Positions 3,294 to 32,735 of a stretch of 59,654 nt of DNA are shown piece after piece. The stretch comes from an uncultured Candidatus Saccharibacteria bacterium. GTDB lineage: Bacteria; Patescibacteriota; Minisyncoccia; Phycocordibacterales; UBA5272. Location of the stretch: contig CAZEDG010000004.1 in NCBI GenBank assembly GCA_964510805.1, positions 1 to 59,654 on the forward strand, read 5' to 3'. Both the position numbers and the translations under genes were made by a program. The notes beneath the pieces are model-generated. The model was not told the DNA's origin, did not search any database, and saw only the letters and a program-made list of their open reading frames with translations. Each line of letters starts with the position of its first letter. Position 1 is the first letter of the stretch.

Positions 3294-3306
3294 GCATTTT
3301 CTTCGA

Positions 3307-3345
3307 CCGCTCCTTGCATATTAAGGAGCGGTTTTGTTTTTATTT
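3307..3345 (+). terminator. Rho-independent terminator.
   Basis: CCGCTCCTT / AAGGAGCGG stem followed by a T-tract. Confidence 0.7.
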
Positions 3346-3397
3346 TTATGTTATTATGTAAATAAACAGAATATTACTCTGTTCATTATTTATTTTT

Positions 3398-3772
3398 ATG
3401 AAAACAAAAGAAAAAGGAGATCTTGCAGTAGGAAAAGCTATAAGTTTTTTTATTTCAAAAGGATATGAAGTTTGTTTGCCTATAGGAGATAAACGTGACT
3501 ATGATCTCATTGTTGAAAAAAATGGTCATTTACAAAAAGTGCAAGTAAAGTTCGCAGGATTATATACAAGGGGTAATGTGTGTAAGGTTGGTTTAAGGAT
3601 AACAGGAGGGAATCAATCATTTACACATTCAAAAAAATACAAAGATACTTCTTTCGATCTTCTTTTTATTTATACTGAAAAGGGTGAGCAGTACTTAGTT
3701 CCGTGGAAGGAAATCACATTTAGGAATGAGTTGTCAATTGAAACAAAAAAGTATATAATGTACAAGCAATAA
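3398..3772 (+). CDS. Small PD-(D/E)XK-fold endonuclease-like protein (YraN/Hjc-like).
   Basis: The pattern GDLAVGKAISFFISKGYEV...DYDLIVEKNGHLQKVQVK matches the YraN/Hjc layout (G..AE..A...L...GY...DxDLI....+..VEVK). It ends 5 nt before the tRNA. Confidence 0.5.
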   Translation: MKTKEKGDLAVGKAISFFISKGYEVCLPIGDKRDYDLIVEKNGHLQKVQVKFAGLYTRGNVCKVGLRITGGNQSFTHSKKYKDTSFDLLFIYTEKGEQYLVPWKEITFRNELSIETKKYIMYKQ

Positions 3773-3776
3773 AATC

Positions 3777-3863
3777 GCGTAGATGGTGGAGTGGCCAATC
3801 ACAATTGACTGTAAATCAATCGCCCTTCGGGCTTCGCTGGTTCGAATCCAGCTCTACGCACCA
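3777..3863 (+). tRNA. tRNA-Tyr (anticodon GTA). It is class II with a long variable arm, and the CCA end is encoded.
   Basis: Acceptor GCGTAGA/TCTACGC. Anticodon stem ATTGA/TCAAT with loop CTGTAAA. Variable-arm hairpin GCCCTTCGGGC. T-arm GCTGG-TTCGAAT-CCAGC, then discriminator A and CCA. Confidence 0.9.
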
Positions 3864-3866
3864 TAT

Positions 3867-3893
3867 GAAAAAGCGCCATCAAGGCGTCTTTTT
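3867..3893. terminator. Bidirectional hairpin terminator after the tRNA.
   Basis: AAAAAGCGCC-atcaa-GGCGtCTTTTT. Confidence 0.6.
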
Positions 3894-3901
3894 CGTATGA
3901 T

Positions 3902-3955
3902 GCGTAGAGCAGTAACAACATAGGGATGTTGTTACGGTGGGTTCGAACGAAAAAG
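3902..3955 (+). other. tRNA-like remnant. It has a copy of the tRNA-Tyr 5' acceptor strand (GCGTAGAG), an 8-bp hairpin and a T-arm-like GGGTTCGAAC, but no 3' acceptor strand.
   Basis: Sequence similarity to elements of the adjacent tRNA. Confidence 0.3.
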
Positions 3956-4094
3956 CGGTATACGAAAATAATACAAGAAAAGTTTTATTCCTGACTTTTC
4001 TTGTCATATTTTTGTCGCTTTTTCCCGGGGTCGAGGCTACGTGCCGAGATGATAAAAGCAGAGCTTTTAGAAGCGAGCCGTAGCGGTGACCGAA

Positions 4095-4111
4095 AATCCA
4101 GCTCTACGCAC
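4095..4111 (+). repeat. Direct copy of the tRNA-Tyr 3' end (AATCCAGCTCTACGCAC), att-core-like.
   Basis: A 17-nt match to 3846-3862. Confidence 0.7.
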
Positions 4112-4422
4112 ATTAACAAAAATGAACAGGTCTTTTATAGACCTGTCATTTTTGTATGTGCGTAGAGAGAAAGCCAACTGCTTGGCTTTCGTCTGGATTC
4201 GAAGTCCACAGTGATGTTTCGCTAGCAAACGAAACCACGAGGAGCCGGCCCTGGAGAAATTTTTGTGACGACAAAAATTTACTTGTGGGCGAATCCTCCA
4301 TTTTGATTCTGGGTTCGAACCAGGAAAGGGGTCGGGAAAACGTGTTTAGTTTTTCCCGTGGCGGAAGAATGGAAACCGAGGGGTTTCCAAACCGCACGCA
4401 ACGAAGTGAGGAAGGTTGTGAG

Positions 4423-4440
4423 ATTCCCAGCTCTACGCAC
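4423..4440 (+). repeat. Second direct copy of the tRNA-Tyr 3' end (ATTCCCAGCTCTACGCAC).
   Basis: Match to the tRNA T-stem and acceptor 3' strand. Confidence 0.7.
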
Positions 4441-4499
4441 AAAATAAGTTTCACTAAAAATCTCCTAAAACAAGGGTGTTTTTAGTTTTAACAAAATGC

Positions 4500-4528
4500 T
4501 TGACAAAGTTTTTTGTATGCGCTATAAT
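4500..4528 (+). promoter_or_regulatory. Consensus sigma70 promoter: TTGACA, a 17-nt spacer, then TATAAT.
   Basis: Exact hexamers with canonical spacing. Confidence 0.6.
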
Positions 4529-4534
4529 ATGGTG

Positions 4535-4622
4535 GCACGTCAGCCTGATGACCGAAAGAGGGAAACCTCCTGGTTTAAAAAACAGGCCGCCACTTCACCT
4601 TCGGAGTGGCGTTTTCTTTTTT
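4535..4622 (+). ncRNA. Candidate small RNA of about 85 nt running from the promoter above to an intrinsic terminator (GCCACT...AGTGGC plus a U-tract at 4589-4622).
   Basis: The promoter and terminator bracket a region with no ORF. Internal hairpins include GUCA..UGAC and GAGG-GAAA-CCUC. A single-stranded CCUCCU is present. Confidence 0.35.
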
Positions 4623-5012
4623 ATAATTTATTAAATTCGGTATATACGGAATCATTTTAGATTTCATCAATTCAGTTCGAACATTTTCTATTACTGTGCA
4701 CATTAACAAAAATGAACAGGTCTTTTATAGACCTGTCATTTTTGTATGTGCGTAGAGAGAAAGCCAACTGCTTGGCTTTCGTCTGGATTCGAAGTCCACA
4801 GTGATGTTTCGCTAGCAAACGAAACCACGAGGAGCCGGCCCTGGAGAAATTTTTGTGACGACAAAAATTTACTTGTGGGCGAATCCTCCATTTTGATTCT
4901 GGGTTCGAACCAGGAAAGGGGTCGGGAAAACGTGTTTAGTTTTTCCCGTGGCGGAAGAATGGAAACCGAGGGGTTTCCAAACCGCACGCAACGAAGTGAG
5001 GAAGGTTGTGAG

Positions 5013-5030
5013 ATTCCCAGCTCTACGCAT
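5013..5030 (+). repeat. Third direct copy of the tRNA-Tyr 3' end (ATTCCCAGCTCTACGCAT).
   Basis: Match to the tRNA 3' end. Confidence 0.7.
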
Positions 5031-5091
5031 CAAATAGTTTTCACTAAAAATCTCCTGTAAAAGCAGGGGATTTTTAGTTCTAGCAAAATAC

Positions 5092-5119
5092 TTGACAAAT
5101 ATTTTGTATTTGATATAAT
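5092..5119 (+). promoter_or_regulatory. Consensus sigma70 promoter: TTGACA, a 16-nt spacer, then TATAAT.
   Basis: Exact hexamers. Confidence 0.6.
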
Positions 5120-5125
5120 AGAAAT

Positions 5126-5189
5126 ATAAGGTGGCCTGAAGAAAAGTCCACCATAACATGGCCCGCAACTCGTTGCGGGCCTCTTTTTA
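5126..5189 (+). ncRNA. Candidate small RNA of about 60 nt ending at the intrinsic terminator GGCCCGCAA-CUCG-UUGCGGGCC plus a U-tract.
   Basis: Promoter and terminator pair with no ORF between them. It is paralogous in position to 4535-4622. Confidence 0.3.
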
Positions 5190-5316
5190 TCGAAAATTCT
5201 TGAGATTCGGCATATACGGAATCATTTTAGATTTCATCAATTCAGTTCTAACTTCGTCCACTACAGCGAGCATAAAGTAAATTTTCAGTAAGATCTCCTT
5301 TTTCCTGAAGTTTTTA

Positions 5317-5353
5317 CTACACTATAATTGACTTTGTGTCAATTATAGTGTAG
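5317..5353. promoter_or_regulatory. Perfect palindrome with 16-bp arms (CTACACTATAATTGAC, spacer tttgt, GTCAATTATAGTGTAG). Each arm embeds a TATAAT. It is an operator or divergent-promoter candidate.
   Basis: Exact reverse complementarity was read from the sequence. It lies 50 bp upstream of the 5402 gene. Confidence 0.6.
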
Positions 5354-5401
5354 TATATTTTTGTTGTACTTTTGCAACGTACAAGTAATCAGGAGTTGCG
5401 T

Positions 5402-5686
5402 ATGTCTTCCAACAAGCAAGAGCTCTCTACTCGTTCTGTTCGAGTGGGTAATATTTCTTTTCTTGTTCCGCCATATATTTACCGTATGAACAAAGGATGG
5501 TGCTTGATGTATCCGGGGTATCACTCTGTCTTTTTTGCTGATAACACCTACGGAGCGTCACTGTGGTCACTTCGAGCTTGTATTGACTGCAAGCTCGAGT
5601 TGCTCCGACAAAAACATGGTCGTCTTCCTTATGGACAAGGTAAGGCCCACAACGATGCCTTGATGTCGTATAAGAAGATTGCGTAA
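5402..5686 (+). CDS. Hypothetical 94-aa protein.
   Basis: AGGAG sits 7 nt upstream of the ATG at 5402. A terminator follows. Confidence 0.5.
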   Translation: MSSNKQELSTRSVRVGNISFLVPPYIYRMNKGWCLMYPGYHSVFFADNTYGASLWSLRACIDCKLELLRQKHGRLPYGQGKAHNDALMSYKKIA

Positions 5687-5726
5687 CAAGAAAGAGAAAG
5701 TAACACGAGTTCTTTCTCCTTAATTA

Positions 5727-5769
5727 CACCCCTCGAGATTTTTCTTCGGGGGGTGTTTTGCTTTTTTAT
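5727..5769 (+). terminator. Intrinsic terminator (CACCCC...GGGGGGTG plus a T-tract).
   Basis: Hairpin plus T-run. Confidence 0.6.
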
Positions 5770-5810
5770 GCTACACTAAAATTATCTATTAGAAGTAACT
5801 GCGAAACTAT

Positions 5811-6284
5811 ATGATACCAAGAAATCCAATTGGAATGAATCCTGGAAATTTACCAGAAAATCCAGCTAGAGACAATCACGCTTTTGTAAGAGAGGTTCAA
5901 CATATTGAAGATCATGGAGAAGAACCTAATGTGCTTGATAGGGCTCTTATGAGTCCGGAAGTTACTGCAAAAATCTTAACAAGAGAGTTAGATGGAATGG
6001 CTCATGTTGTTGCTAGTATTTTTATATTACTTGGTGAAAAAGGAATCGACTTGTATGACAATTCAAAGGGAGCACAAGAGGCTAGAGAGGTGCTTAGATC
6101 TTTTGAGATAGACGGCGATTTGTTGACACGGTTACTTGAAACAAGAGATGCATTAAGATCTGTCGAAGAGTTTTTACGAAAGCAGATGCCTCATCGAGAG
6201 TATATTGCAAGAGTGTTGCCAGAAGTTGAACGATATCAAAGCGCTGTAACTGCAGATAATAATAGTAGTCGTAAGGCTGGCTAG
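5811..6284 (+). CDS. Hypothetical acidic 157-aa protein, the first gene of a low-GC four-gene operon.
   Basis: ORF with 27-42-bp gaps to the following genes. Confidence 0.5.
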   Translation: MIPRNPIGMNPGNLPENPARDNHAFVREVQHIEDHGEEPNVLDRALMSPEVTAKILTRELDGMAHVVASIFILLGEKGIDLYDNSKGAQEAREVLRSFEIDGDLLTRLLETRDALRSVEEFLRKQMPHREYIARVLPEVERYQSAVTADNNSSRKAG

Positions 6285-6311
6285 TGGTAGAAAGTTGGAT
6301 AGTAGATAACC

Positions 6312-8420
6312 ATGTTCGAAGAATTTTCTCCTAAACCAGATTCGGTAGTTAATGATTCTATTCCTGATCCCCAAGCACAACCACAACTTTCTTATGAAGA
6401 GCGAATGCAACAACTTGAGGAAAGATTTAGTGTTGGTGTTCCTAAGCAAAAAATTAAAGAAGGTTATCAGACAGCAAGTCAGTTATATAAAGTTTTAAAT
6501 TCTTCTCCTGAAACTATTAGATTTATTGTTGAAGGTCTTAGAAAAAATCCCTTACTTGAAGAAGAAATACAAAAAAATGCAAAAAGTGGACCCAATAAAC
6601 CAACAGAAGCATACTCTCCGTTACTTGTTGAAAAGATTAGAGAAAAACTTAAAGAGAAACGTGAAGATAATATAATTAAAGAAGGATACAAGACAGCAAA
6701 TAAGTTTAGTACTATTTTAAAAAAAGATCCGAAGATAATTAAATCAACTGTTGCAACACTGCTTGCTAATGATCCGACACTTGAAGGTCAGATACAAAGA
6801 GGTGCAAGAACCGGAAGTCAAACAGACGATGCATATTCCCCAATATTGTTACAACTCATTGCAGATCAGTTTCCTCTATTAATGAAAAAAGGGTATTTAA
6901 AGTCAAAAAAACTTGGAGAGATTCTCGGGTATCATGACAAGACGATTAAATTAACGGTAAAAAAAATACTTAAGGAAAACCCATTACTTAAATCTGAGAT
7001 ACAAGAAAATGCAAGAGATGGAGGCTCTCCATCAGAAGCCTACTCTCCATTTTTAATCGAAAAAATTAAACAATTGTTAGATGGTTTAAATCCTAAGGAA
7101 GGATATATGACAGCAAGTCAGATACGTTACCATCTTGGCGCTGCCGTGCCTACAATTGAAAGTGCGATAGAAACGGTTAAATTTACAAGACCGGATTTAG
7201 TATCTCATGTACAAGAAATTGTAATGAGTGGAAAGAAAAAACGTAGCGCTTACTCACCTTTGTTTGTAGATGAAATTAGAAAAGTAATTAAATCTAGAGA
7301 TGTTAATCAAGGGTATTTAACTGTAAAAAAAATAGCACCACTTTTAAATTCCACTAGACAAACTATTGAGTTTATTGTTAAAGAGATCCTTAAAGAAGAT
7401 AAATTTCTAGAAAGAGAGATACAAACAAGAAATATAAAATGGGGCTCAGGAAAATCTCCCGATGCGTATTCTCCTTTTTTTATTGAAAGGATTAGAGAGA
7501 AATTAAATCTAAGTCGTAAGCAGAATATGATTAAGGATGGGTATCAGACAGCAAATGGATTACAAAATATTTTAAATAGTAATTCGAAAACCATTAAAAC
7601 AATAGTTGGAAAACTGTGCATAGATGTACCTCAGTATGAACAAGAAGTGCAAAGGAATGCAAAAATCTACAATAGATTTATTTCGGATGCATATTCTCCA
7701 CTTCTGGTTGAAAAAATTAGAGAAAAACTTAAGGAATCTGAACCTAAAATTCTTACTGTAAATCGTGGTTATATATTTCAGTACTCACTAGAACTCATTC
7801 TTAAACTTGTCGGTAATACAAATATTTTTGTTGAAAAAACCATTAAGATACAAGGAAGAAAAGGTAGCCACAGACCAGATCTGATGCACGTATCTTCTGA
7901 TGATCAAAAAGTAACTATCTTTGATATTAAGTTACAGACAACGACAATAGGTATAGAAAATGATATTGAAAATTATTCGCAATATATTAATGACAAATAT
8001 CCACAAGGTGGTAACTTGGTGTTTCTCTGTCTTAATGGGCCAGAAATTGGGAAAGAAGCTCTAGAAGGAAAAGAAAAAGTGACGGTACGGTATTATCATG
8101 CGCTTGATTTTATTGATAGATTGCTTGATAACTCACGCAATAAATTTCTATTACGCACCCTTAGAGGGAAAGAGAATGACAGTTTATCTGACACAGAACC
8201 TCTTACACCAGAAGAGATTACTAAGATAGAAGAAATTAAGTCACGATTACTTCTTCTAAGAGATCAAATACAGGGAAAAACTATTAACGGTGAGAATGGT
8301 GGTCCAGAACAAGTAGCAAAGAATACTCTCGCGTTAAGAACAAAATTAGGCCGTCTTGCAAAGAAGGCAACTAAAGAAGAGTTGTTACAACTTGATTACA
8401 CAACGTTGATGAATGTGTAG
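6312..8420 (+). CDS. 702-aa protein with six tandem ~70-aa repeats (consensus (K/Q)(E/D)GY.TA......TI...V.....E.Q.....G.....AYSP.L...I). The C-terminal domain carries a PD-(D/E)XK-like motif (RPDLMHV...IFDIK).
   Basis: The repeats are evident in the translation. The D...(D/E)xK spacing fits the restriction-endonuclease fold. Confidence 0.6.
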   Translation: MFEEFSPKPDSVVNDSIPDPQAQPQLSYEERMQQLEERFSVGVPKQKIKEGYQTASQLYKVLNSSPETIRFIVEGLRKNPLLEEEIQKNAKSGPNKPTEAYSPLLVEKIREKLKEKREDNIIKEGYKTANKFSTILKKDPKIIKSTVATLLANDPTLEGQIQRGARTGSQTDDAYSPILLQLIADQFPLLMKKGYLKSKKLGEILGYHDKTIKLTVKKILKENPLLKSEIQENARDGGSPSEAYSPFLIEKIKQLLDGLNPKEGYMTASQIRYHLGAAVPTIESAIETVKFTRPDLVSHVQEIVMSGKKKRSAYSPLFVDEIRKVIKSRDVNQGYLTVKKIAPLLNSTRQTIEFIVKEILKEDKFLEREIQTRNIKWGSGKSPDAYSPFFIERIREKLNLSRKQNMIKDGYQTANGLQNILNSNSKTIKTIVGKLCIDVPQYEQEVQRNAKIYNRFISDAYSPLLVEKIREKLKESEPKILTVNRGYIFQYSLELILKLVGNTNIFVEKTIKIQGRKGSHRPDLMHVSSDDQKVTIFDIKLQTTTIGIENDIENYSQYINDKYPQGGNLVFLCLNGPEIGKEALEGKEKVTVRYYHALDFIDRLLDNSRNKFLLRTLRGKENDSLSDTEPLTPEEITKIEEIKSRLLLLRDQIQGKTINGENGGPEQVAKNTLALRTKLGRLAKKATKEELLQLDYTTLMNV

Positions 8421-8454
8421 ATACTATGTGTATCACTTGCTATACTAAAACCAT

Positions 8455-9513
8455 ATGACACTAGGTCAAGAACGCAAAGTAACTAACGATCATAACAAAG
8501 CTCTCATTCTTAATGACAAGCTAGAAGAATTTCGTGAAGCTCATCCGCGATCAAAAAGACCTGACCAAGAAATAGTTGACGGGATGGTTAAAGATGACGC
8601 ACGCAATCTTTTTCCTTATAAACATTTTTCTCCTGATACCCAAGAGTGGCTTAGAAACTTATCAATTTCTGGAATTAAGGTATTAGAAGATGGGTATCTT
8701 GAGGTTCGTAAGTGGGATAATACTGGACGACATTTTGGTAGACCAAGAAGAATGTTCCAAAGAGTTGATGATATAGATGCCGGGATACGAATGCAAGATC
8801 ATATTCTCGAAGGGTATATTACAAGGAAAGATAGCAAAAAAGATAACAAAGAGAAGGCAAGAGAAGACGAAAGTGTTAGATTAGATTCTATCGAGGAAGT
8901 AATAGAAGAAGCAAACTCACTTTTTCTTGCGTGGAAGTTTGCAAAGCAGGAAGATAAAGAAGAAGTGAAGCAGAGACTTGCTCAAGTAATTCTTACTCTT
9001 GAAAAATGTCGCAATGAGTTCAAGGTACGAACAAAAAGACAAGCACAAGCAGTGCTTCGTATGAAGGATAGTAGAGGAAGAGACAATCCGAGCGCGCTCG
9101 CTCTCCGTACGGTCACCGCTCTTAATAATCTGCAAATGAGATTGCAAGAAATTCAGGATATTGCACCAAAAGTTGCTTTGCGAAAAGAGCTACTTGTACT
9201 TGAGAAGCGTCGAAATGAAAAGCTTTGTTTTAAGGCGGTTGCAAAATTACGTTTTATTTTACGACATGTGTTTTTTGGCAAGAGTCCAAAAAGTCTTAGA
9301 GACTCTGATGCTACCGGACTTCTCGGTAAAGTAGGAGAAGCCAAGGAAGCACTTCGCGAAGTCATCATTTCTCCTTATCGAGAAAGACGTAATCAGGTAT
9401 TGTTTTTTCTTGCAACCCTAGAAGATGTAATGAAATCAAAAGAATCAATGACAGAAAACAGAGAGATGATTAAGAAACTATTACTTGATATTATAAAAAT
9501 GTTGGAGGAGTAG
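8455..9513 (+). CDS. Hypothetical 352-aa coiled-coil-rich protein.
   Basis: ORF in the operon with no recognisable motif. Confidence 0.5.
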   Translation: MTLGQERKVTNDHNKALILNDKLEEFREAHPRSKRPDQEIVDGMVKDDARNLFPYKHFSPDTQEWLRNLSISGIKVLEDGYLEVRKWDNTGRHFGRPRRMFQRVDDIDAGIRMQDHILEGYITRKDSKKDNKEKAREDESVRLDSIEEVIEEANSLFLAWKFAKQEDKEEVKQRLAQVILTLEKCRNEFKVRTKRQAQAVLRMKDSRGRDNPSALALRTVTALNNLQMRLQEIQDIAPKVALRKELLVLEKRRNEKLCFKAVAKLRFILRHVFFGKSPKSLRDSDATGLLGKVGEAKEALREVIISPYRERRNQVLFFLATLEDVMKSKESMTENREMIKKLLLDIIKMLEE

Positions 9514-9555
9514 GTGTTGTTTTTGTGACTGGTTATTCCGTGCTACTATATCCTC

Positions 9556-10980
9556 ATGCAATATCTTCTCATTCCTTCCCGTCACATTCTTTATAGCAAA
9601 GAGCAGTATGACGCTTTGCTTAATCATCTTAAGAAAAATTCTTATGAGAAAGTAATTCTCGCGATTACTTCGTCTGATCTTAATAATTGTAAGTACTCAT
9701 CGATCGATATCTTCTATCGCACACTTATGGCAAGCACGCTTGCTGGGCATCTTCTTAGGGAATGTAATGCTACCTGTGTTATTACAACTGTTCCTCATAC
9801 CAGGAAAACAGATTCGTATGCATCGTATGTGGTGAAGCATGTTTTTTGGAAAATAGGGCTTACGCTTACACCAGAAAATACAAGAGTCTTCTCGTATGGA
9901 AAGTACATGTCAGAGTCTTTTTCTTCTGCTTCATATGATACCGTATCTTGTTTTGTTAAAGACCATGTGCATCTTTTTGAAAAACTTTTTAGAGAAGGGG
10001 ATAGTGAGTATTTTTGGAGTATGCTTTCTTTACCAAGTGAGCAAGTGTTTTCTCATCAAAGCGAACTTCTTGGAATAACCAAAAAAATATGGCTTGATCC
10101 TATTCTCAAAGAAATGGGAAGTATCACCGAGACACGTAATTATCATATTTATACGCATGCTATGAGTAATGAGCAGGTGATTGAGTACAAGTACAACGAT
10201 ATTAAGGATTATCTTGTGGAAGGAAAAATTGTTGATGAGGGGTGTGCTGATTGTGCGCTCTTTATTCCTGTTGCGCGAGACTTTCCTGATTCTGATCTTA
10301 TTGGTGTTGAGATCTCAAGTGATTTTATCGCAAGAGCAAATGAAAGAATCAGGGAAGGGTTCTTCGGTGGAAGCTTCGTGACAGTGCTTCAGGCGAATTT
10401 GCTTTTTCCTATTTTCCAAAATGAATCTATTGATACGGTGATTTGTAACTCTACGCTTCATGAGATTTGGTCTTATAATAACAAGATGGAATCTCTTAAG
10501 GGATATCTTACTTACAAATATAATCAGCTAAGGAAAGGTGGAAGACTTATTGCTCGTGATGTAGTTGGCGTGGAAGATCCTCGCAAGGTGGTGCTTCTTA
10601 GAGATGTGACCGATAACAATACGATGTGGAAGAAGTTCTTGAATGACTTTGATCATGTGGGTGATGATGTTTGCGAGGAGGTAGTGGTTAATGGTCAGGT
10701 CTATGCGAAGACTTCGTATAAGCTTGCTTCTGAATATTTGCTTCATAAGGATTATCAAGATAATTGGCAGAGTGAGATGCATGAAGAGTTTTGCCACATG
10801 AATAGTACTTCTTGGAAAGAATTGCTTCTTTCGGTCGGGTTTACAAACGTTATCGTGAATGCGTATCAGAATAGCTGGATTGTTGAGAATCGTTTCAAAG
10901 GTAAAGTGATACTTCTTGATGAGTCATTTCGCGAAGTTGCATATCCTCCAACAAATGTAGTGATTGTCGCGGAGAAGTGA
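9556..10980 (+). CDS. 474-aa protein with a C-terminal class-I SAM-dependent methyltransferase-like fold and an uncharacterised N-terminal half.
   Basis: Motif I-like VDEGCADCALF, post-I acidic LIGVEIS, and motifs II/III at FVTVLQANLLFP...IDTVICNSTLHEI. No D/NPPY motif, so it does not look like an N6/N4 DNA methyltransferase. Confidence 0.5.
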   Translation: MQYLLIPSRHILYSKEQYDALLNHLKKNSYEKVILAITSSDLNNCKYSSIDIFYRTLMASTLAGHLLRECNATCVITTVPHTRKTDSYASYVVKHVFWKIGLTLTPENTRVFSYGKYMSESFSSASYDTVSCFVKDHVHLFEKLFREGDSEYFWSMLSLPSEQVFSHQSELLGITKKIWLDPILKEMGSITETRNYHIYTHAMSNEQVIEYKYNDIKDYLVEGKIVDEGCADCALFIPVARDFPDSDLIGVEISSDFIARANERIREGFFGGSFVTVLQANLLFPIFQNESIDTVICNSTLHEIWSYNNKMESLKGYLTYKYNQLRKGGRLIARDVVGVEDPRKVVLLRDVTDNNTMWKKFLNDFDHVGDDVCEEVVVNGQVYAKTSYKLASEYLLHKDYQDNWQSEMHEEFCHMNSTSWKELLLSVGFTNVIVNAYQNSWIVENRFKGKVILLDESFREVAYPPTNVVIVAEK

Positions 10981-11160
10981 CGTATTAAAGCAAAAAAGCG
11001 TTGATAGATATACATAAAAAGGGAGATTTTATAGATAGAAATAATGGAATTGTAAATATTGACAAATATAATTATATATGATAAATTAATCTTGTCTCAA
11101 AATTGGGTTTCCCAACAAGAGCAAATGTAGTTCATCGTTAATCAATCAGGAGAATTCTCA

Positions 11161-13230
11161 ATGGAAACTGTAGGTGGTATCTTCAACGTGATTTCCGGCC
11201 ATCTTGGCACGATCATCGCTTTCATCGCCTTGGTCGCATTCATCCTCCTCTACAAGTGGACGTTCCGTCTCTTCGGCATCTACATCATCCCCGATGACTC
11301 GCTCGGCACACTGACCAAGAAGTTCGTGCTGTTCGGCGCGAACCGCCAGCTGCCAGCGGGCAAGATCGTGGCGCTCCACGGCGAGGCTGGCTACCAGGCC
11401 GACACCCTCGCTCCCGGCATCCACTTCTTTCTGTGGCCGTGGCAGTACGACGTGAACATCTCGAAGTTCACCGTGATCCCTCCGGGGCAGGTCGGTGTGG
11501 TCGAGGCGTGCGATGGTCTACCTCTTCCGGATGGGCGCATCATCGCCAAGGACGTCGTCTGTGATAACTTCCAGGACGCACGCGCCTTCCTCGAGAATAG
11601 TGGTGAGCGTGGCGTGCAGGTGGGCATCATCCCGCCTGGCGCCTGGCGCATCAACACTCTGCTGTTCACGGTGAAGATGTCCCCGATGATCGTCGTCGGC
11701 CCCAACCAGATCGGTGTGGTCGAAGCGCACGACGGTGCCCCGCTCTCAGGCGGGCGCATCCTCGGCAAACATGTCGACAGCGACATGTTCCAGGATGGTC
11801 AAGCCTTCCTCAACAACGGTGGTGAGCGTGGCCCGCAGATGACCATCATCCCCCAAGGTCAGTACCGGATCAATCCGGCACTGTTCAAGGTCGAGATGGC
11901 CGATGTGGTCGACGTGCCTGATGAGAAGATCGGGGTGGTCACCACCAAGGAAGGCGCTCCGCTTCCCACTGGCGACATCGCCGGCGAAGAGGTCGACGGG
12001 CATAACTCGTTCCAGGACCCGATGGCGTTCGTTGGAAGTGGCGGCACCAAGGGTCTCCAGGTCCAGGTGCTGCGCGCCGGTCGCTACTTCATCAACCCGA
12101 AGTTCGCCATCGTGGAGATGAAGGACATGCTCGAGGTGCCGATCGCGCACGTCGGCGTCGTCATCGCGTTTGTCGGCAAGAAGGGCGAGGACGTCACCGG
12201 TGCCGGGTTCAAGCACGGCAACATGGTGCGCAAGGGCGAACGCGGTGTCTGGATCGACGTGCTCGATCCGGGCAAGTACCCGATGAACCCGTACGCCTTC
12301 AAGGTGATCAACGTTCCGACGGCAAACGTCGTGCTCAACTGGGCCAACAGCAAGACCGAGAGCCACAAGCTCGACGAGAAGCTGTCGACCATCACCGTCC
12401 GCTCTTCCGACGGCTTCCCGCTCAACCTGGACGTCAGCCAGATCATCCACATCCCGACCAGCGAGGCCCCCAAGGTCATCGCCCGGTTCGGCAGCATGCT
12501 GGCGCTGGTCACGCAGGTGCTCGAGCCCACCATCGGCAACTACTTCCGCAACGCGGCGCAGAGCTACGGTTGCATCGACTTCGTCGTCGGCCGTGCGCAG
12601 CGCCAAGCCGAGGCTGAACAGGCCATCAGCGAGGCGCTGAAGGAGTACGACGTGGTGGCTGTCCGCACGCTGATCGGCGACCTCGTTCCGCCCCAGGAAC
12701 TGATGGACACGCTGACTCAGCGCAAGGTGGCCGAGCAACAGAAGCTGACGTACGGCGTACAGCAACAGGCGCAAGAGGCGCGCAAGCTCCTCGAGCAAGC
12801 GCATGCGCAAGCCGAGACCCAGGCGAGCGTGGTGACCGCCGAACGTTCCGTCGAGATCGCTCGCTTCAATGCGAGCGCCGCGGTGGAGACCGCGGAAGGT
12901 GGTGCCAAGGCGAAGAAGATCAACGCCAATGCGGACGCTGAAGTCCTCCGTGTCGTCGGCGAAGCCGAAGGCGCGAAGATCACTGCGGTGGGTTCCGCCG
13001 AAGCTGAGGTCATGACTCGCAAGACGACCGCCATCGGTGCCGACAACTACGCGCGCATTCAGGTCGCCGATTCGCTCGGCAAGGCCGGTATCAAGCTGGT
13101 TCCCGACGTCATGGTCGCAGGTGGTGACGGAACGCGCGGTGGCACCATTGTCGACGCACTGCTCGGCAACATCCTTGCCAAGGGTCTCCCTGGCACGCCC
13201 TCCGCGAAGCCGGCCGAAGCCAAGGCTTGA
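11161..13230 (+). CDS. Flotillin/SPFH (band-7) family membrane protein with an N-terminal TM helix, four ~60-aa internal repeats and an Ala/Glu-rich flotillin-type C-terminus. The CDS is strongly GC-rich.
   Basis: Repeats of the form IIPPGQVGVVEAxDGxPLPxGRI...FQDxxAFLxNGGERG. C-terminal AEAEQ.../EAEGAKI stretches. AGGAG lies 9 nt upstream of the ATG. Confidence 0.7.
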   Translation: METVGGIFNVISGHLGTIIAFIALVAFILLYKWTFRLFGIYIIPDDSLGTLTKKFVLFGANRQLPAGKIVALHGEAGYQADTLAPGIHFFLWPWQYDVNISKFTVIPPGQVGVVEACDGLPLPDGRIIAKDVVCDNFQDARAFLENSGERGVQVGIIPPGAWRINTLLFTVKMSPMIVVGPNQIGVVEAHDGAPLSGGRILGKHVDSDMFQDGQAFLNNGGERGPQMTIIPQGQYRINPALFKVEMADVVDVPDEKIGVVTTKEGAPLPTGDIAGEEVDGHNSFQDPMAFVGSGGTKGLQVQVLRAGRYFINPKFAIVEMKDMLEVPIAHVGVVIAFVGKKGEDVTGAGFKHGNMVRKGERGVWIDVLDPGKYPMNPYAFKVINVPTANVVLNWANSKTESHKLDEKLSTITVRSSDGFPLNLDVSQIIHIPTSEAPKVIARFGSMLALVTQVLEPTIGNYFRNAAQSYGCIDFVVGRAQRQAEAEQAISEALKEYDVVAVRTLIGDLVPPQELMDTLTQRKVAEQQKLTYGVQQQAQEARKLLEQAHAQAETQASVVTAERSVEIARFNASAAVETAEGGAKAKKINANADAEVLRVVGEAEGAKITAVGSAEAEVMTRKTTAIGADNYARIQVADSLGKAGIKLVPDVMVAGGDGTRGGTIVDALLGNILAKGLPGTPSAKPAEAKA

Positions 13231-13396
13231 CTCCTGGCTGGTTGAGTAACACTCACTAGTGCAAGGCTAGTGCGAGCCCTGTCAAACGTTAAATCGTTTC
13301 GGGGCTTTTTTCTTTTCCTAACTTTTACTATTTTTTGTATCGTGTACACATTATTAGCTTTTTTGTTGTGGAACTTTTTGGTAGTATATAAAGTAT

Positions 13397-14056
13397 ATGA
13401 GTACAAAGTCTTCAGATATTCGTTTTGCTATTGTTTCTACTGATATTATTTTGCTTCGAGAAAATGAAGGCGATATCGAATTTGGCGTGATGGATATTGA
13501 TAGACCTCCTTACTATGTTCATATGGAGGGTTTTGTCGGTGGTGTACTCAGACCAGAAGAGACTGCTCTTATGGCGAGTCATCGAATTTTGGAAGAAAAG
13601 ACTTCTATCAAACCTAGCGAAGTGCAGTTCTTTCCTCTTGGTTTTTATGATGACCCTAAGCGAGATGAGAGAGGGCGTGTCGTTGCGCTCGCATATCTTG
13701 GTATTCTTACGGGATCAGGTGAGGAATATGGGCTTACTTGGTACCCACTGTACAAGAAGGCAAAGTTTGCATACGATCACACACTTATGTTACGTGATAC
13801 GATAGAGTACCTTAAGTCACATCTCTATGTCTCAACGATTGCACTCGCGTTTCTCCCTAAACATTTTGTGGTAAGTAAACTCAAAGCTATTTTTGATTAC
13901 ATAGAAGGGGAGGAGATTGATAAGAGAAATTTTTATAAATTCCTAGACACCTATCCGGTAGAAAAAACAAAAGAACTGCAGAGTGAAGGGAGGGGGAGGC
14001 CAGCACTTATTTATAAGAAGAAACAGACTAAAGCTTTCTTTTTATCTAAGAAATAA
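13397..14056 (+). CDS. nrtR: Nudix hydrolase fused to a C-terminal winged-HTH, i.e. an NrtR-like NAD-metabolism regulator.
   Basis: Nudix box GGVLRPEETALMASHRILEEKTSI. C-terminal DKRNFYKFL...GRGRPALIYKK resembles the NrtR DNA-binding domain signature. Confidence 0.6.
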   Translation: MSTKSSDIRFAIVSTDIILLRENEGDIEFGVMDIDRPPYYVHMEGFVGGVLRPEETALMASHRILEEKTSIKPSEVQFFPLGFYDDPKRDERGRVVALAYLGILTGSGEEYGLTWYPLYKKAKFAYDHTLMLRDTIEYLKSHLYVSTIALAFLPKHFVVSKLKAIFDYIEGEEIDKRNFYKFLDTYPVEKTKELQSEGRGRPALIYKKKQTKAFFLSKK

Positions 14057-14140
14057 TGTTAGAACCTACACACTTAAGTGACGTGTAGAGAAAACACCTT
14101 ATTTGTGGGTGTTTTTTGCTTTATTTTGCTTGTACACATG

Positions 14141-14229
14141 TTAATTAGTGTAAAACTTGCACTAATTAATCACCTATGCTAGAGTGTAGATAGATATTAG
14201 TGTAGTTAATACACTAATAAATACAAAAG
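14141..14229. promoter_or_regulatory. Two palindromes upstream of the PP2C gene: TTAATTAGTG-N9-CACTAATTAA (14141-14169) and TATTAGTGTA-gttaa-TACACTAATA (14205-14229). Both share the half-site TTAGTGTA/TACACTAA.
   Basis: Read directly from the sequence. The same half-site appears upstream of nadE. Confidence 0.5.
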
Positions 14230-14289
14230 GAATCAATTAAAAATAATTCCATAAAGTTCTTTGAAATTATAGTTCTGAAAGGAAATCAT

Positions 14290-15153
14290 ATGAACACTGT
14301 TTCGCATCTTGAAGAATTGTTTAGAGTTGGTGCAGGAAAAGTTCCTGGAACTGATCATACAATGCCCGGGCTTCCTGCTTGGAAAAATTGTCAGGACGCG
14401 TACCGTGTAGAAATAAACAAGCACGCCATCGTTATCGTTGTTTGTGACGGTAATGGTAGTGAGTCAAATAGCGAAGTTGGAGCATCTCTTTCGGCGCAAC
14501 TCTTGGCAAGAAAAATTGCTGAAGAGGTGAAGATTAGAGAGGTTTTTGAACCAATCGAAATTCTTGAAGAGGCACGCTGTGCACTCATGCAACTTTTTCT
14601 TGATCTCGGTGAGCATCTTATGGGAAGCTTCACTGAGAACGCAAATCGTTTTATGCTTGCAACTGCGCTTGTTGCGATTGTGACCGAAGAAGAAACAGTA
14701 ATTGCTGGTATTGGTGATGGATATTATGCGGTAAATGGAGAAGTTGTTGAAATTGGCCCATTCCCTGGTAACGCACCACCGTACCCTGTCTATGCAATTA
14801 CCGGATCGTCACTTGCTTCGCATTCGCCTGAACTTGTTCGCTTCACTTTATATCGCAGGATGCCAACTCAAGAAGTTGATACGCTTGCGATTATGAGTGA
14901 TGGGGTGAAATATCTCATTCAAGCAGTTGGCACGCCTCTGCCTAAGAAGCCTCATGAACAAGTTCCTCCTCTTGATACATTTTGGTTGGAAGAGCGGTAT
15001 GTGAAGAATCCTGACAATATTCGTCGTCAGCTTGCGCTTATTAACATCGAAACGATTTCGTACACCGAAGATGGTAAGCCTTACTTACGTACTGGCGTGC
15101 TCAAGGATGATACAACAATTGTCATCATGAGGCGTAATACGTCTAGTACGTAG
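14290..15153 (+). CDS. PP2C-family Ser/Thr protein phosphatase.
   Basis: Metal-binding motifs VCDGNGS, GIGDG and MSDG. Confidence 0.65.
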   Translation: MNTVSHLEELFRVGAGKVPGTDHTMPGLPAWKNCQDAYRVEINKHAIVIVVCDGNGSESNSEVGASLSAQLLARKIAEEVKIREVFEPIEILEEARCALMQLFLDLGEHLMGSFTENANRFMLATALVAIVTEEETVIAGIGDGYYAVNGEVVEIGPFPGNAPPYPVYAITGSSLASHSPELVRFTLYRRMPTQEVDTLAIMSDGVKYLIQAVGTPLPKKPHEQVPPLDTFWLEERYVKNPDNIRRQLALINIETISYTEDGKPYLRTGVLKDDTTIVIMRRNTSST

Positions 15154-31706: not shown

Positions 31707-32735
31707 ATGTCAGGTATTACTTTTAAACCCAAAGCCGTTTCCAAAAAGCTTCTTTCGACGCTTAACCCAAGAACACGAGAAATCGTGATCAATCGTTATG
31801 GTCTAGAGAAAGAAAATAGAATGACCCTTGAAGCAATCGGGAAGACATATGATATTACTCGTGAACGAGTAAGACAGATCGAAAACTTTGCACTCACTTC
31901 TATCAAGAAGTCTAAGGAGTACAAAGAGCATCTTTTTGTATTCGAAGAACTCAAGAAGATTGTTGAAGATCTCGGTGCTGTTGTCTCAGAGGATCATCTT
32001 ATGCGTCATATCTCTAAGGATCCTGTGATTCAGAATCATATCAATCTCTATCTTGCACTTGGTGAAGATTTTAAGAAGCATAAAGAAGACGATCATTTCC
32101 ACGCTCACTTCACAACTAACGATAAGACTGCTGAACATGTACGTCAAGCACTCCATAAGCTCTATGGATCTATAAGTGAAGAAGATCTTATTGGAGAAGA
32201 AGAGGTGTTCTCAAGATTTATGAGTCATCTTAACGAGCTTATTGCTGAGTATAAGGAGAACAAGGAGATTATTTATCGTTACCTTGCGCTCTCTAAGGTT
32301 GTTGGCAAGAATCAGTTAAGTGAATGGGGTCGCACTTCATCTCCTCATGTAAAGGCTCGTGGTATTAAGGATTATGCATACCTTATTATGCGTCGCGCTA
32401 ATCGTCCTATGCACTTCAAGGAAGTTGCGCAAGAGATTAACAAGACTTTTGGTAAGAAGGCACATGTTGCGACATGTCATAATGAACTTATCAAGGATTC
32501 TCGTTTTGTTCTTGTTGGTCGCGGAATGTACGGCCTTAAGGATTGGGGTCATACAGGTGGCGTTGTCCGTGATGTGATTACTGAAGTTCTTAAGGAGGCA
32601 GGTCGCCCTCTTCCAAAAGATGAAATCATTAAGCGTGTACTACAGAAGCGCATCGTAAAGCCTAACACTGTGCTTGTAAACCTTCAAAATACTAAACATT
32701 TCCGTAAGGTTGCTGGAGATTATACAGTTGTGTAG
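31707..32735 (+). CDS. Sigma-70 region-4-like HTH protein with a C-terminal HARE-HTH domain.
   Basis: TLEAIGKTYDITRERVRQIENFAL, then a C-terminal MHFKEVAQEI...RFVLVGRGMYGLKDW. Confidence 0.5.
   Translation: MSGITFKPKAVSKKLLSTLNPRTREIVINRYGLEKENRMTLEAIGKTYDITRERVRQIENFALTSIKKSKEYKEHLFVFEELKKIVEDLGAVVSEDHLMRHISKDPVIQNHINLYLALGEDFKKHKEDDHFHAHFTTNDKTAEHVRQALHKLYGSISEEDLIGEEEVFSRFMSHLNELIAEYKENKEIIYRYLALSKVVGKNQLSEWGRTSSPHVKARGIKDYAYLIMRRANRPMHFKEVAQEINKTFGKKAHVATCHNELIKDSRFVLVGRGMYGLKDWGHTGGVVRDVITEVLKEAGRPLPKDEIIKRVLQKRIVKPNTVLVNLQNTKHFRKVAGDYTVV

Follow-up and report, generated by a model that had tools for sequence, protein, structure and literature searches.

The window analysed here, the complete 59,654-bp stretch of contig CAZEDG010000004.1, contains a tRNA-Tyr gene followed by a modular array in which two consensus sigma70 promoters (P1 and P2) each precede a short predicted non-coding RNA (RNA1 and RNA2). 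On balance, and with modest confidence, these two RNAs are considered to be by-product transcripts of cargo-less remnants of tRNA-targeting integrative elements and not dedicated regulatory RNA genes. Each promoter belongs to a segment termed a P module, which is composed of an A/T hairpin, the consensus promoter, a short insert, a terminator and a conserved block (D2). The remaining components of the array are structured units (U units). The window was compared with 80 related loci (designated by L-numbers), among which L004 is the closest relative.

Modular array downstream of tRNA-Tyr

The tRNA-Tyr gene has an encoded CCA, its 3' end reads …CCAGCTCTACGCACCA, and its promoter (TTGTCA-17-TATAAT, 3731-3759) lies within the 3' end of the upstream PDDEXK_5 open reading frame (ORF). 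The sequence CCAGCTCTACGCA from the end of this tRNA is present four times in the array, with cores at 3848 (within the tRNA), 4098, 4427 and 5017. The order of the components is tRNA, U1, U2, P-module 1, U2 and P-module 2, and all module junctions are located at the tRNA 3'-end sequence ...ACGCA/C, where the slash marks the junction. Direct repeats of the tRNA 3' end flank the modules, and the D2 blocks end in ...GTGCAC and ...GCGAGCAT. A right-hand boundary copy of the tRNA end was not found beyond the array.

The two U2 copies (4108-4439 and 4698-5029) are identical at 332 of 332 positions, and this identity ends exactly at the ...ACG/CAC core junctions, whereas the promoter-bearing segments between them are only about 75% identical. 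The "590-bp tandem repeat" of this region is not a uniform duplication. The A/T-rich hairpin at 4453-4486, which follows a core, probably terminates the upstream tRNA or U transcript, because it is homologous to the hairpin found directly after the genuine tRNA-Tyr of L004. The coordinates of the features of the array are collected in Table 1.

Table 1. Features of the tRNA-Tyr array in the window
Feature	Position	Strand	Remarks
tRNA-Tyr(GTA)	3777-3863	+	encoded CCA; 3' end CCAGCTCTACGCA is the repeated junction/core of the array
U1 structured unit	3896-4110	+	predicted fold -90.2 kcal/mol, z = -8.5
U2 module, copy a	4108-4439	+	bidirectional terminator 4126-4146, then structured unit of about 290 nt ending in CCAGCTCTACGCA; predicted fold z = -6.2
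A/T-rich hairpin after core	4453-4486	+	homologous to hairpin directly after genuine L004 tRNA-Tyr
Promoter P1	4500-4528	+	TTGACA-17-TATAAT; score 12/12; homologous to L004 11257-11360
Predicted RNA1	about 4535-4621	+	about 86 nt, non-coding; contains terminator stem 4588-4611 and T tract
D2 copy 1	4617-4703	-	putative last 29 or so codons of a large-serine-recombinase-like gene, …CTVIENVRTELMKSKMIPYIPNL…
U2 module, copy b (U3)	4698-5029	+	identical to 4108-4439
A/T-rich hairpin after core	5043-5078	+	paralogue of 4453-4486
Promoter P2	5092-5119	+	TTGACA-16-TATAAT, extended -10 TG; score 12/12
Predicted RNA2	about 5126-5189	+	about 64 nt, non-coding; GGUGG/CCACC hairpin; terminator 5160-5181 and T tract
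D2 copy 2	5190-5273	-	putative recombinase-tail remnant MLAVVDEVRTELMKSKMIPYMPNLKNFR; conserved block 5193-5273; stop codon abuts RNA2 terminator
Palindrome	5315-5355	.	perfect; 18-bp arms, 5-nt loop; TTGAC and TATAAT-like hexamers

Promoters, terminators and predicted RNAs

A sequence-only reading of the window had placed an exact TTGACA/TATAAT promoter at each of these two positions and had described such hexamers as rare. Both promoters were recovered at those coordinates with all hexamer positions matched, and they are the only exact consensus sites in the window, compared with 0.06 expected; two or more such sites occurred in none of 100 shuffles of the 59,654 bp. Each promoter is followed by a strong intrinsic terminator, as had also been noted. 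The stem of terminator 1 (4588-4611) has 9 bp, 6 of them GC, and is followed by TTTTCTTTTT; that of terminator 2 (5160-5181) has 9 bp, 7 of them GC, and is followed by TCTTTTTAT. The lengths given for RNA1 and RNA2 assume that transcription starts about 7 nt past each -10 element. No ORF lies wholly inside either predicted transcript, in agreement with the earlier statement that no credible ORF stands between promoter and terminator; the listed ORFs extend across one of the promoters or terminators, and none has a ribosome-binding site. Small peptides encoded in the RNAs were considered and dropped, as there are no ribosome-binding sites and the frames continue through the terminators.

The two transcripts had been described as paralogous in position and diverged in sequence. 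They are true paralogues, and their bodies are not unrelated: they align significantly, with a score of 21 compared with -5.8 ± 6.5 for shuffled sequences (0 of 500 shuffles). The alignment contains many indels: 30 of its 63 columns are identical and 29 are gapped, whereas the promoter and D2 flanks are about 75% identical. Of all P-module segments, the body shows the lowest conservation. Predicted folds of RNA1 and RNA2 have z-scores of -2.2 and -4.7, respectively; by our reading of these folds, the terminators would supply most of the stability. No structure common to RNA1 and RNA2 was found in the predicted folds besides the terminator.

Two further statements made from the letters alone require correction. 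The (A/U)GGUGG start described for both RNAs does not occupy equivalent positions in them, because the GGUGG of RNA1 lies only 3-7 nt past the -10 element and is thus probably at or before the start site. The CCUCCU stretch, which was said to be exposed in RNA1, is engaged in a GAAA-capped hairpin in the predicted fold, where CCUC pairs with GAGG.

Rfam was searched at the gathering threshold and, for positions 3300-5800, at E<=10, and nothing but tRNA matched; the proposal that the short RNAs are small RNAs (sRNAs) gained no support from this check even at E<=10. The same holds for targets in the window, as complementarity detected by blastn-short and RNAduplex was not above that of shuffled controls. 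Homologues of RNA1 or RNA2 were not found among the 80 related loci, and viral and first metagenome pattern scans for the promoter and D2 gave no matches. Both predicted RNAs have their own promoter and intrinsic terminator and are free of ORFs, as expected of independent sRNA genes; a body more conserved than its flanks, which is also expected of such genes, was not found. The RNAs are read as by-products because their bodies are the least conserved segment and have neither homologues nor an Rfam match nor a target.

D2 block and its relation to a serine-recombinase-like gene

The conserved core of D2 comprises 65 nt, and the whole block spans about 113 nt with inverted-repeat ends (GTGTGGGGTA and TACCCCGCAC). 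In copy 1 of the window, the open frame (4575-4703) extends into the terminator of RNA1. Further D2 sites are present in L004 (14276-14380) and in L085-L092. The minus-strand peptide (M/L)C(A/G)VLENVRTELMKSxVxPY(I/V)PNL is kept in 14 of 14 D2 copies while its codons turn over, with six Leu codons in use and Ser alternating between TCN and AGY. Pairwise differences among the 14 copies are distributed by codon position as 384/198/578. Judged by these patterns, D2 is a protein-coding remnant on the minus strand. Other assignments of D2 were tried and rejected: no conserved or consensus RNA structure was found, neither ARAGORN nor Rfam called it as a decayed tRNA, and coding on the plus strand is interrupted by an in-frame stop (seen by eye) in copy L058a.

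A motif profile search over 1.84 billion representatives returned 26 proteins. In the longer hits without obvious read-through (P0026, P0025, P0005 and P0007), the motif forms the extreme C-terminus, and the recombinase C-terminal tail carries …LCAVLENVRTELMKS…. P0026 has a Zn_ribbon_recom domain, its relatives P0029 and P0030 have Resolvase, Recombinase and Zn_ribbon domains, and alignments of P0026 with P0025 and P0005 span about 100 residues. The possibility that P0029 represents an "integrated" recombinase with an antisense tRNA fused to it was rejected because no tRNA is located at that place. The D2 peptide itself matched no family in Pfam or PHROGs. The 3' part of the recombinase gene was found on the short contigs L093 and L095.

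Nearly all D2 copies in arrays keep the last 28-30 codons or so, and their identical first residue coincides with the ...GCAC junction. The recombinase fragment at the element end consists of this tail of about 28 codons alone. D2 is most simply read as the tail of a large-serine-recombinase-like gene that would have been cut at its own attachment site upon integration of the element at a tRNA 3' end; an integration scar would be expected to show just such a cut at one constant residue.

P modules and their cargo in related genomes

The hairpin and promoter of both window modules match L004 11257-11360, directly after the genuine tRNA-Tyr (nhmmer, 1.4e-23). In the L004 region 11257-14530, the promoter precedes a small ORF and the genes encoding Hsp20, Cpn10 and Cpn60; next come a terminator, D2 and a U unit, and the tRNA-Tyr 3' end then occurs a second time (at +3269). 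The set of the small ORF and hsp20-groES-groEL was found only in L004 among the 80 loci, and no hsp20 or groESL is present in the window. The chaperonin genes of L004 appear, from this gene order, to be the cargo of such a module.

Similar arrangements have been identified in other relatives. L082 contains TTGACA-17-TATAAT, an ORF of 112 aa, a terminator and D2. L058 contains two modules, with a helicase and an ORF of 326 aa, and D2 is located at the end of each. Pattern scanning detected seven more D2 copies on metagenome contigs of the Joint Genome Institute (JGI), and a protein look-up added an eighth. D2 ends unrelated cargo on its right side in at least 12 other contigs. L085 (391-6134) and L090 (4366-6337) share three ORFs beside D2 (206, 217 and 206 aa). 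Cargo-bearing modules thus occur in L004, L082, L058 and L085/L090, and a full recombinase is joined to D2 in none of them.

As far as sequence comparison can tell, the window P modules are the cargo-carrying shell of these relatives, emptied. Because the shell of the relatives drives protein-coding cargo and carries a recombinase tail after the terminator, the earlier guess that the RNAs are element-encoded is supported, whereas the part of that guess that made them regulatory sRNAs or antitoxins gained no support and keeps a low probability. The location at an integration hotspot and the self-contained, insulated nature of the two transcription units, both suggested beforehand, agree with the present results.

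The cargo at L058 10332-12254 encodes a ResIII/DEAD helicase with three C-terminal copies of the "Integrase repeat unit" (PF14882). The third ORF shared by L085 and L090 (206 aa) encodes an ART-PolyVal ADP-ribosyltransferase. The shared ORFs come after D2 and a U unit in L090; in L085 the shared ORFs and two more are followed by D2.

Proposed origin of the two modules

In the proposed model, small integrative elements would have inserted at the 3' end of either tRNA-Tyr or a tRNA-mimicking U unit, and each promoter with its short RNA would be the shell that survives of one such P module. In tRNA orientation, the left part of a full module would comprise the tRNA-end core junction, an A/T hairpin that ends the upstream transcript and a near-consensus sigma70 promoter, followed on the right by the cargo genes and an intrinsic terminator shared with a convergent gene. 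The last 30 or so recombinase-like codons (D2) would be located at the far end on the opposite strand and would close the module at the next core junction. The attachment site of the recombinase would lie inside its own 3' coding region, and after integration the tail would remain at the distal end of the element. In the genome studied here, both modules lack cargo, and the recombinase body would be gone. RNA polymerase starting at P1 or P2 would transcribe a degenerate leader of 50-60 nt and stop at the old cargo/recombinase terminator, yielding the RNAs of about 86 and 64 nt. We infer the firing of the promoters, the by-product status of the RNAs, the making of the junctions by a recombinase and the loss of cargo and recombinase body. 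Orphan promoters in decayed integrative elements are an already known kind of feature.

Several observations weigh against this model. An intact element in which a recombinase adjoins a P module was not recovered. The recombinase body is absent from the ORFs of the 59.6-kb window and from the surroundings of the D2 copies examined, so that the severing of the gene at integration is presumed. The hairpin and promoter of L004 abut a genuine tRNA and could therefore be a native tRNA flank. In both window copies, the 12/12 hexamer positions and the terminators are intact and the flanks are about 25% diverged; the chance of such intactness is estimated by us at about 0.03-0.07, with the sites treated as independent, which hints at selection for expression. 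As the bodies are homologous, the short cargo-less form predates the duplication and has persisted for some time.

Alternative explanations

The retention of hexamers and terminators in both paralogues and the age of the short form relative to the duplication would also suit genuine trans- or cis-acting sRNAs, which would be RNA-only cassette cargo, for example antisense to the recombinase-tail transcript or to incoming elements. Each unit is complete and insulated by a perfect promoter and a strong terminator, and the 3' end of RNA1 (4575-4621) is antisense to the open frame that extends from D2, in a layout like that of some type I toxin-antitoxin loci. This explanation is nevertheless considered unlikely. 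The body is the fastest-evolving, indel-rich part of the module, and the GGUGG/CCACC hairpin of RNA2 is not kept in RNA1, whose GGUGG abuts the -10 element. Neither the 80 loci nor the viral and metagenome scans yielded a homologue, Rfam yielded no match, and complementarity remained at the level of shuffled controls. The conserved part of D2 is located beyond the terminator, and the RNA therefore does not cover it. The D2 peptide is charged and amphipathic and is no membrane toxin, and no promoter for D2 was seen by eye.

The short RNAs could instead be leaders or attenuators of U3 or of the ORF at 5402-5686 and beyond, with terminators that act as riboswitch, T-box or thermometer switches. 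GGUGGC at 4531-4536 could pair with GCCGCC at 4586-4591, which overlaps the 5' arm of the terminator and would form a possible antiterminator, but GGUGGC lies at or before the probable start site, and a riboswitch-like competition between a P1 stem and the terminator in RNA1 was dropped for this reason. Hairpins in both bodies hide Shine-Dalgarno-like sequences, as in the 5' untranslated region of L004, and the U units have no promoter of their own. However, a second terminator (4716-4736) is present between P1 and U3, and a terminator, D2 and the 18-bp palindrome with its own promoter-like site are present between P2 and the next ORF. What follows each terminator is an opposite-strand gene remnant; a sensor with a terminator or antiterminator upstream of a co-oriented gene was not found, nor was aptamer-like conservation or an Rfam match. 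The leader explanation is accordingly given a low probability. An equally low one is given to a plain tandem duplication of the native tRNA flank that arose by replication slippage or unequal crossing-over and did not involve a mobile element; P1 and P2 would then be duplicates of the promoter that natively serves the gene downstream of tRNA-Tyr. The homology of the hairpin and promoter to the native-looking tRNA-Tyr flank of L004 and the lack of a recombinase gene nearby are in line with such an event. However, a single duplication predicts uniform divergence, and the split of the repeat into halves of 100% (332 nt) and about 75% identity, which switch exactly at the tRNA-3'-end cores, therefore counts against it. 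The presence of D2 to the right of unrelated cargo in other contigs also argues against it, as does the identity of D2 as a probable recombinase tail for which nearly all copies share one cut codon.

Structured units linked to tRNA genes

The structured portions of the two U2 copies are 4150-4439 and 4740-5029. U1 and U2 are both predicted to fold much more stably than shuffled sequences. The 5' arm of U1 (TGCGTAGAG) is the reverse complement of the tRNA 3'-end copy that closes the unit. About 30 U units of 100-330 nt have been identified after tRNA-Tyr, Trp, Leu, Cys and Lys in related Paceibacteria loci, including L005, L018, L019, L022, L036, L042, L050, L064, L071 and L082. Each unit ends in a copy of the 3' end of its own tRNA, and the 5' arm, where recognisable, is the reverse complement of the tRNA end of that genome. 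The tRNA-sense strand folds better in 25 of 30 units (p = 1e-5).

The U units are mosaics of recurrent hairpins. One of these, TACTG-stem-CTGTAAG-stem, was found in L036, L050, L058, L067, L077, L080 and other loci; it shows 16 double changes, and its observed covariation score occurred in 0 of 500 shuffles. Its 7-nt loop, CUGUAAG, resembles a GUA anticodon loop, even in units that follow tRNA-Leu or tRNA-Trp. No Rfam family was found for the U units at E<=10 in 3300-5800 or at the gathering threshold in 10 related loci. They were also considered as tmRNA-like RNAs or group I introns, and both ARAGORN and Rfam were negative.

Comparison with known systems

The tycheposons of Prochlorococcus integrate at tRNA genes, carry partial tRNA copies between modules, are pushed outward by newcomers, have variable cargo and leave integrase-less remnants (bioRxiv 10.1101/2020.12.28.424599). 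The window modules are likewise separated by direct repeats of the tRNA-Tyr 3' end, as in tycheposon islands and cis-mobilisable remnants. Unlike tycheposons, they are tiny (250-330 bp) and gene-free, and the sole trace of a recombinase in the window is a serine-recombinase-like tail of about 28 codons that is cut at a junction. The core is limited to the final 13-19 nt of the tRNA, the host belongs to the candidate phyla radiation (CPR), and tRNA-mimic units are interleaved with the modules.

The 178-bp repeats of the Escherichia coli tyrT locus (rtT; RttR, RF00391) resemble the U units, and not the promoters, in that they are arranged in tandem downstream of tRNA-Tyr. The locus used for comparison (L084) is K-12 NC_000913.3 1286000-1288200, which contains rttR/tyrV. 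Each repeat unit ends in an exact copy of the tRNA-Tyr 3' end (ATCCTTCCCC) and has a 5' arm with the reverse-complementary sequence GGGGAAGGAT. The U units share the position downstream of a tRNA, the 3'-end copy and the complementary 5' arm, but they do not match the RF00391 model even at E<=10. Unlike the E. coli repeats, the CPR units are mosaics of 100-330 nt and are also found after tRNA-Trp, Leu, Cys and Lys, whereas the E. coli repeats have no promoter/terminator modules or recombinase tails between them.

Integrases of the SSV1 type are archaeal tyrosine recombinases encoded by a gene that itself contains attP and is split near the N-terminus when the element integrates into a tRNA gene. 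The D2 copies are similar in two respects: a tRNA-derived junction forms the end of the recombinase fragment, and the cut falls at one and the same codon in nearly all of them. A nearly constant cut codon is what an attachment site inside the gene predicts. Unlike in SSV1, the gene in the window is serine-recombinase-like and is cut about 30 codons before its stop; since the other half was not found, a split can only be presumed.

Convergent arrangements of an sRNA and a small ORF are known from type I toxin-antitoxin systems such as par fst/RNAII and txpA/RatA. The window modules resemble these in that a strong promoter would produce a short RNA convergent with a small frame, and both share the terminator between them. 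In copy 1, the 3' end of the small frame is overlapped by RNA1; copy 2 shows no such overlap. Unlike in type I systems, the small frame encodes a hydrophilic recombinase tail (…ENVRTELMKSKMIPYIPNL…) and not a membrane peptide, no promoter or ribosome-binding site was seen for it, the terminator abuts its start, and the same promoter drives ordinary genes in relatives. The combination of a hydrophobic toxin ORF, its own promoter and an antisense overlap is not found here.

Like integron cassettes, the modules are discrete, are stacked at one site with sharp, sequence-defined junctions and are in some cases ORF-free. Unlike integron cassettes, each P module has its own promoter and terminator, and the junction is a tRNA 3' end. 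No tyrosine recombinase or IntI is present among the window ORFs, and no attC GTTRRRY cores were seen by eye, no formal search having been made. The array does not qualify as an integron cassette array.

Implications

The association of tRNA-3'-end junctions with a serine-recombinase tail, the self-promoted mini-modules and the rtT-like units in CPR genomes appear to be undescribed. A more far-reaching explanation, which is regarded as doubtful, is an undescribed cassette-like system in CPR (Paceibacteria) genomes whose three parts hold jointly. In such a system, a large serine recombinase with an attachment site within the 3' coding region of its own gene would place promoter-equipped modules at tRNA 3' ends and also at rtT-like tRNA-mimic RNAs, which would serve as extra landing pads or processing signals, and the window modules would be RNA-only cassettes that control, for example, the recombinase or competing elements.

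RNA1 and RNA2 are weak sRNA candidates, and pairs of a perfect promoter and a terminator are easily over-read as sRNA genes. The tRNA 3' ends of the small and poorly understood CPR genomes emerge as modular insertion sites, and a conserved "non-coding" block of 65 nt is tied to the tail of a serine-recombinase-like gene. The rtT-like structured units after several tRNAs provide a distant structural counterpart for the long-unexplained rtT repeat of E. coli. If the recombinase model is true, gene-poor symbionts would have a new route to gain self-expressing genes, including chaperonins and defence genes, and a serine integrase with a defined tRNA target would be at hand.

Genomic setting and neighbouring genes

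The window is part of a bacterial chromosome, with ClpC, LeuRS, UvrA/C, ribonucleotide reductase, DnaE and RNase J encoded among its ORFs. Its ClpC shares 84-91% identity with the ClpC proteins of uncultured Patescibacteria (Parcubacteria/Paceibacteria) genomes, and the order of ClpC followed by tRNA-Tyr is repeated in most retrieved relatives. A blastn search of a phage database gave the tRNA as its sole match, exact look-ups of the window proteins returned the same strain only, and a neighbouring protein of 330 aa is an orphan that gave no synteny. A literature search on tRNA-linked RNAs of CPR bacteria returned nothing specific.

Upstream of the array, the ORF at 3398-3772 encodes a PD-(D/E)XK endonuclease (PF11645) and stops 5 nt before tRNA-Tyr. 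The PF11645 family includes a tRNA-intron homing endonuclease. DNA similar to the stretch that precedes tRNA-Tyr in the window also precedes tRNA-Tyr in L007, L014, L067 and L072.

Downstream, the palindrome ahead of the ORF at 5402-5686 lies at the end of the array and is probably part of the next gene; an operator-promoter and a terminator are both conceivable roles for it. The genes at 5402-13230 are mostly orphans (94, 157, 702 and 352 aa), together with a methyltransferase and an SPFH-domain protein, and the GC content across this region swings between 0.33 and 0.55, which suggests further foreign DNA. The ORF at 31707-32735 encodes a sigma-70 region 4 domain and a HARE-HTH domain.

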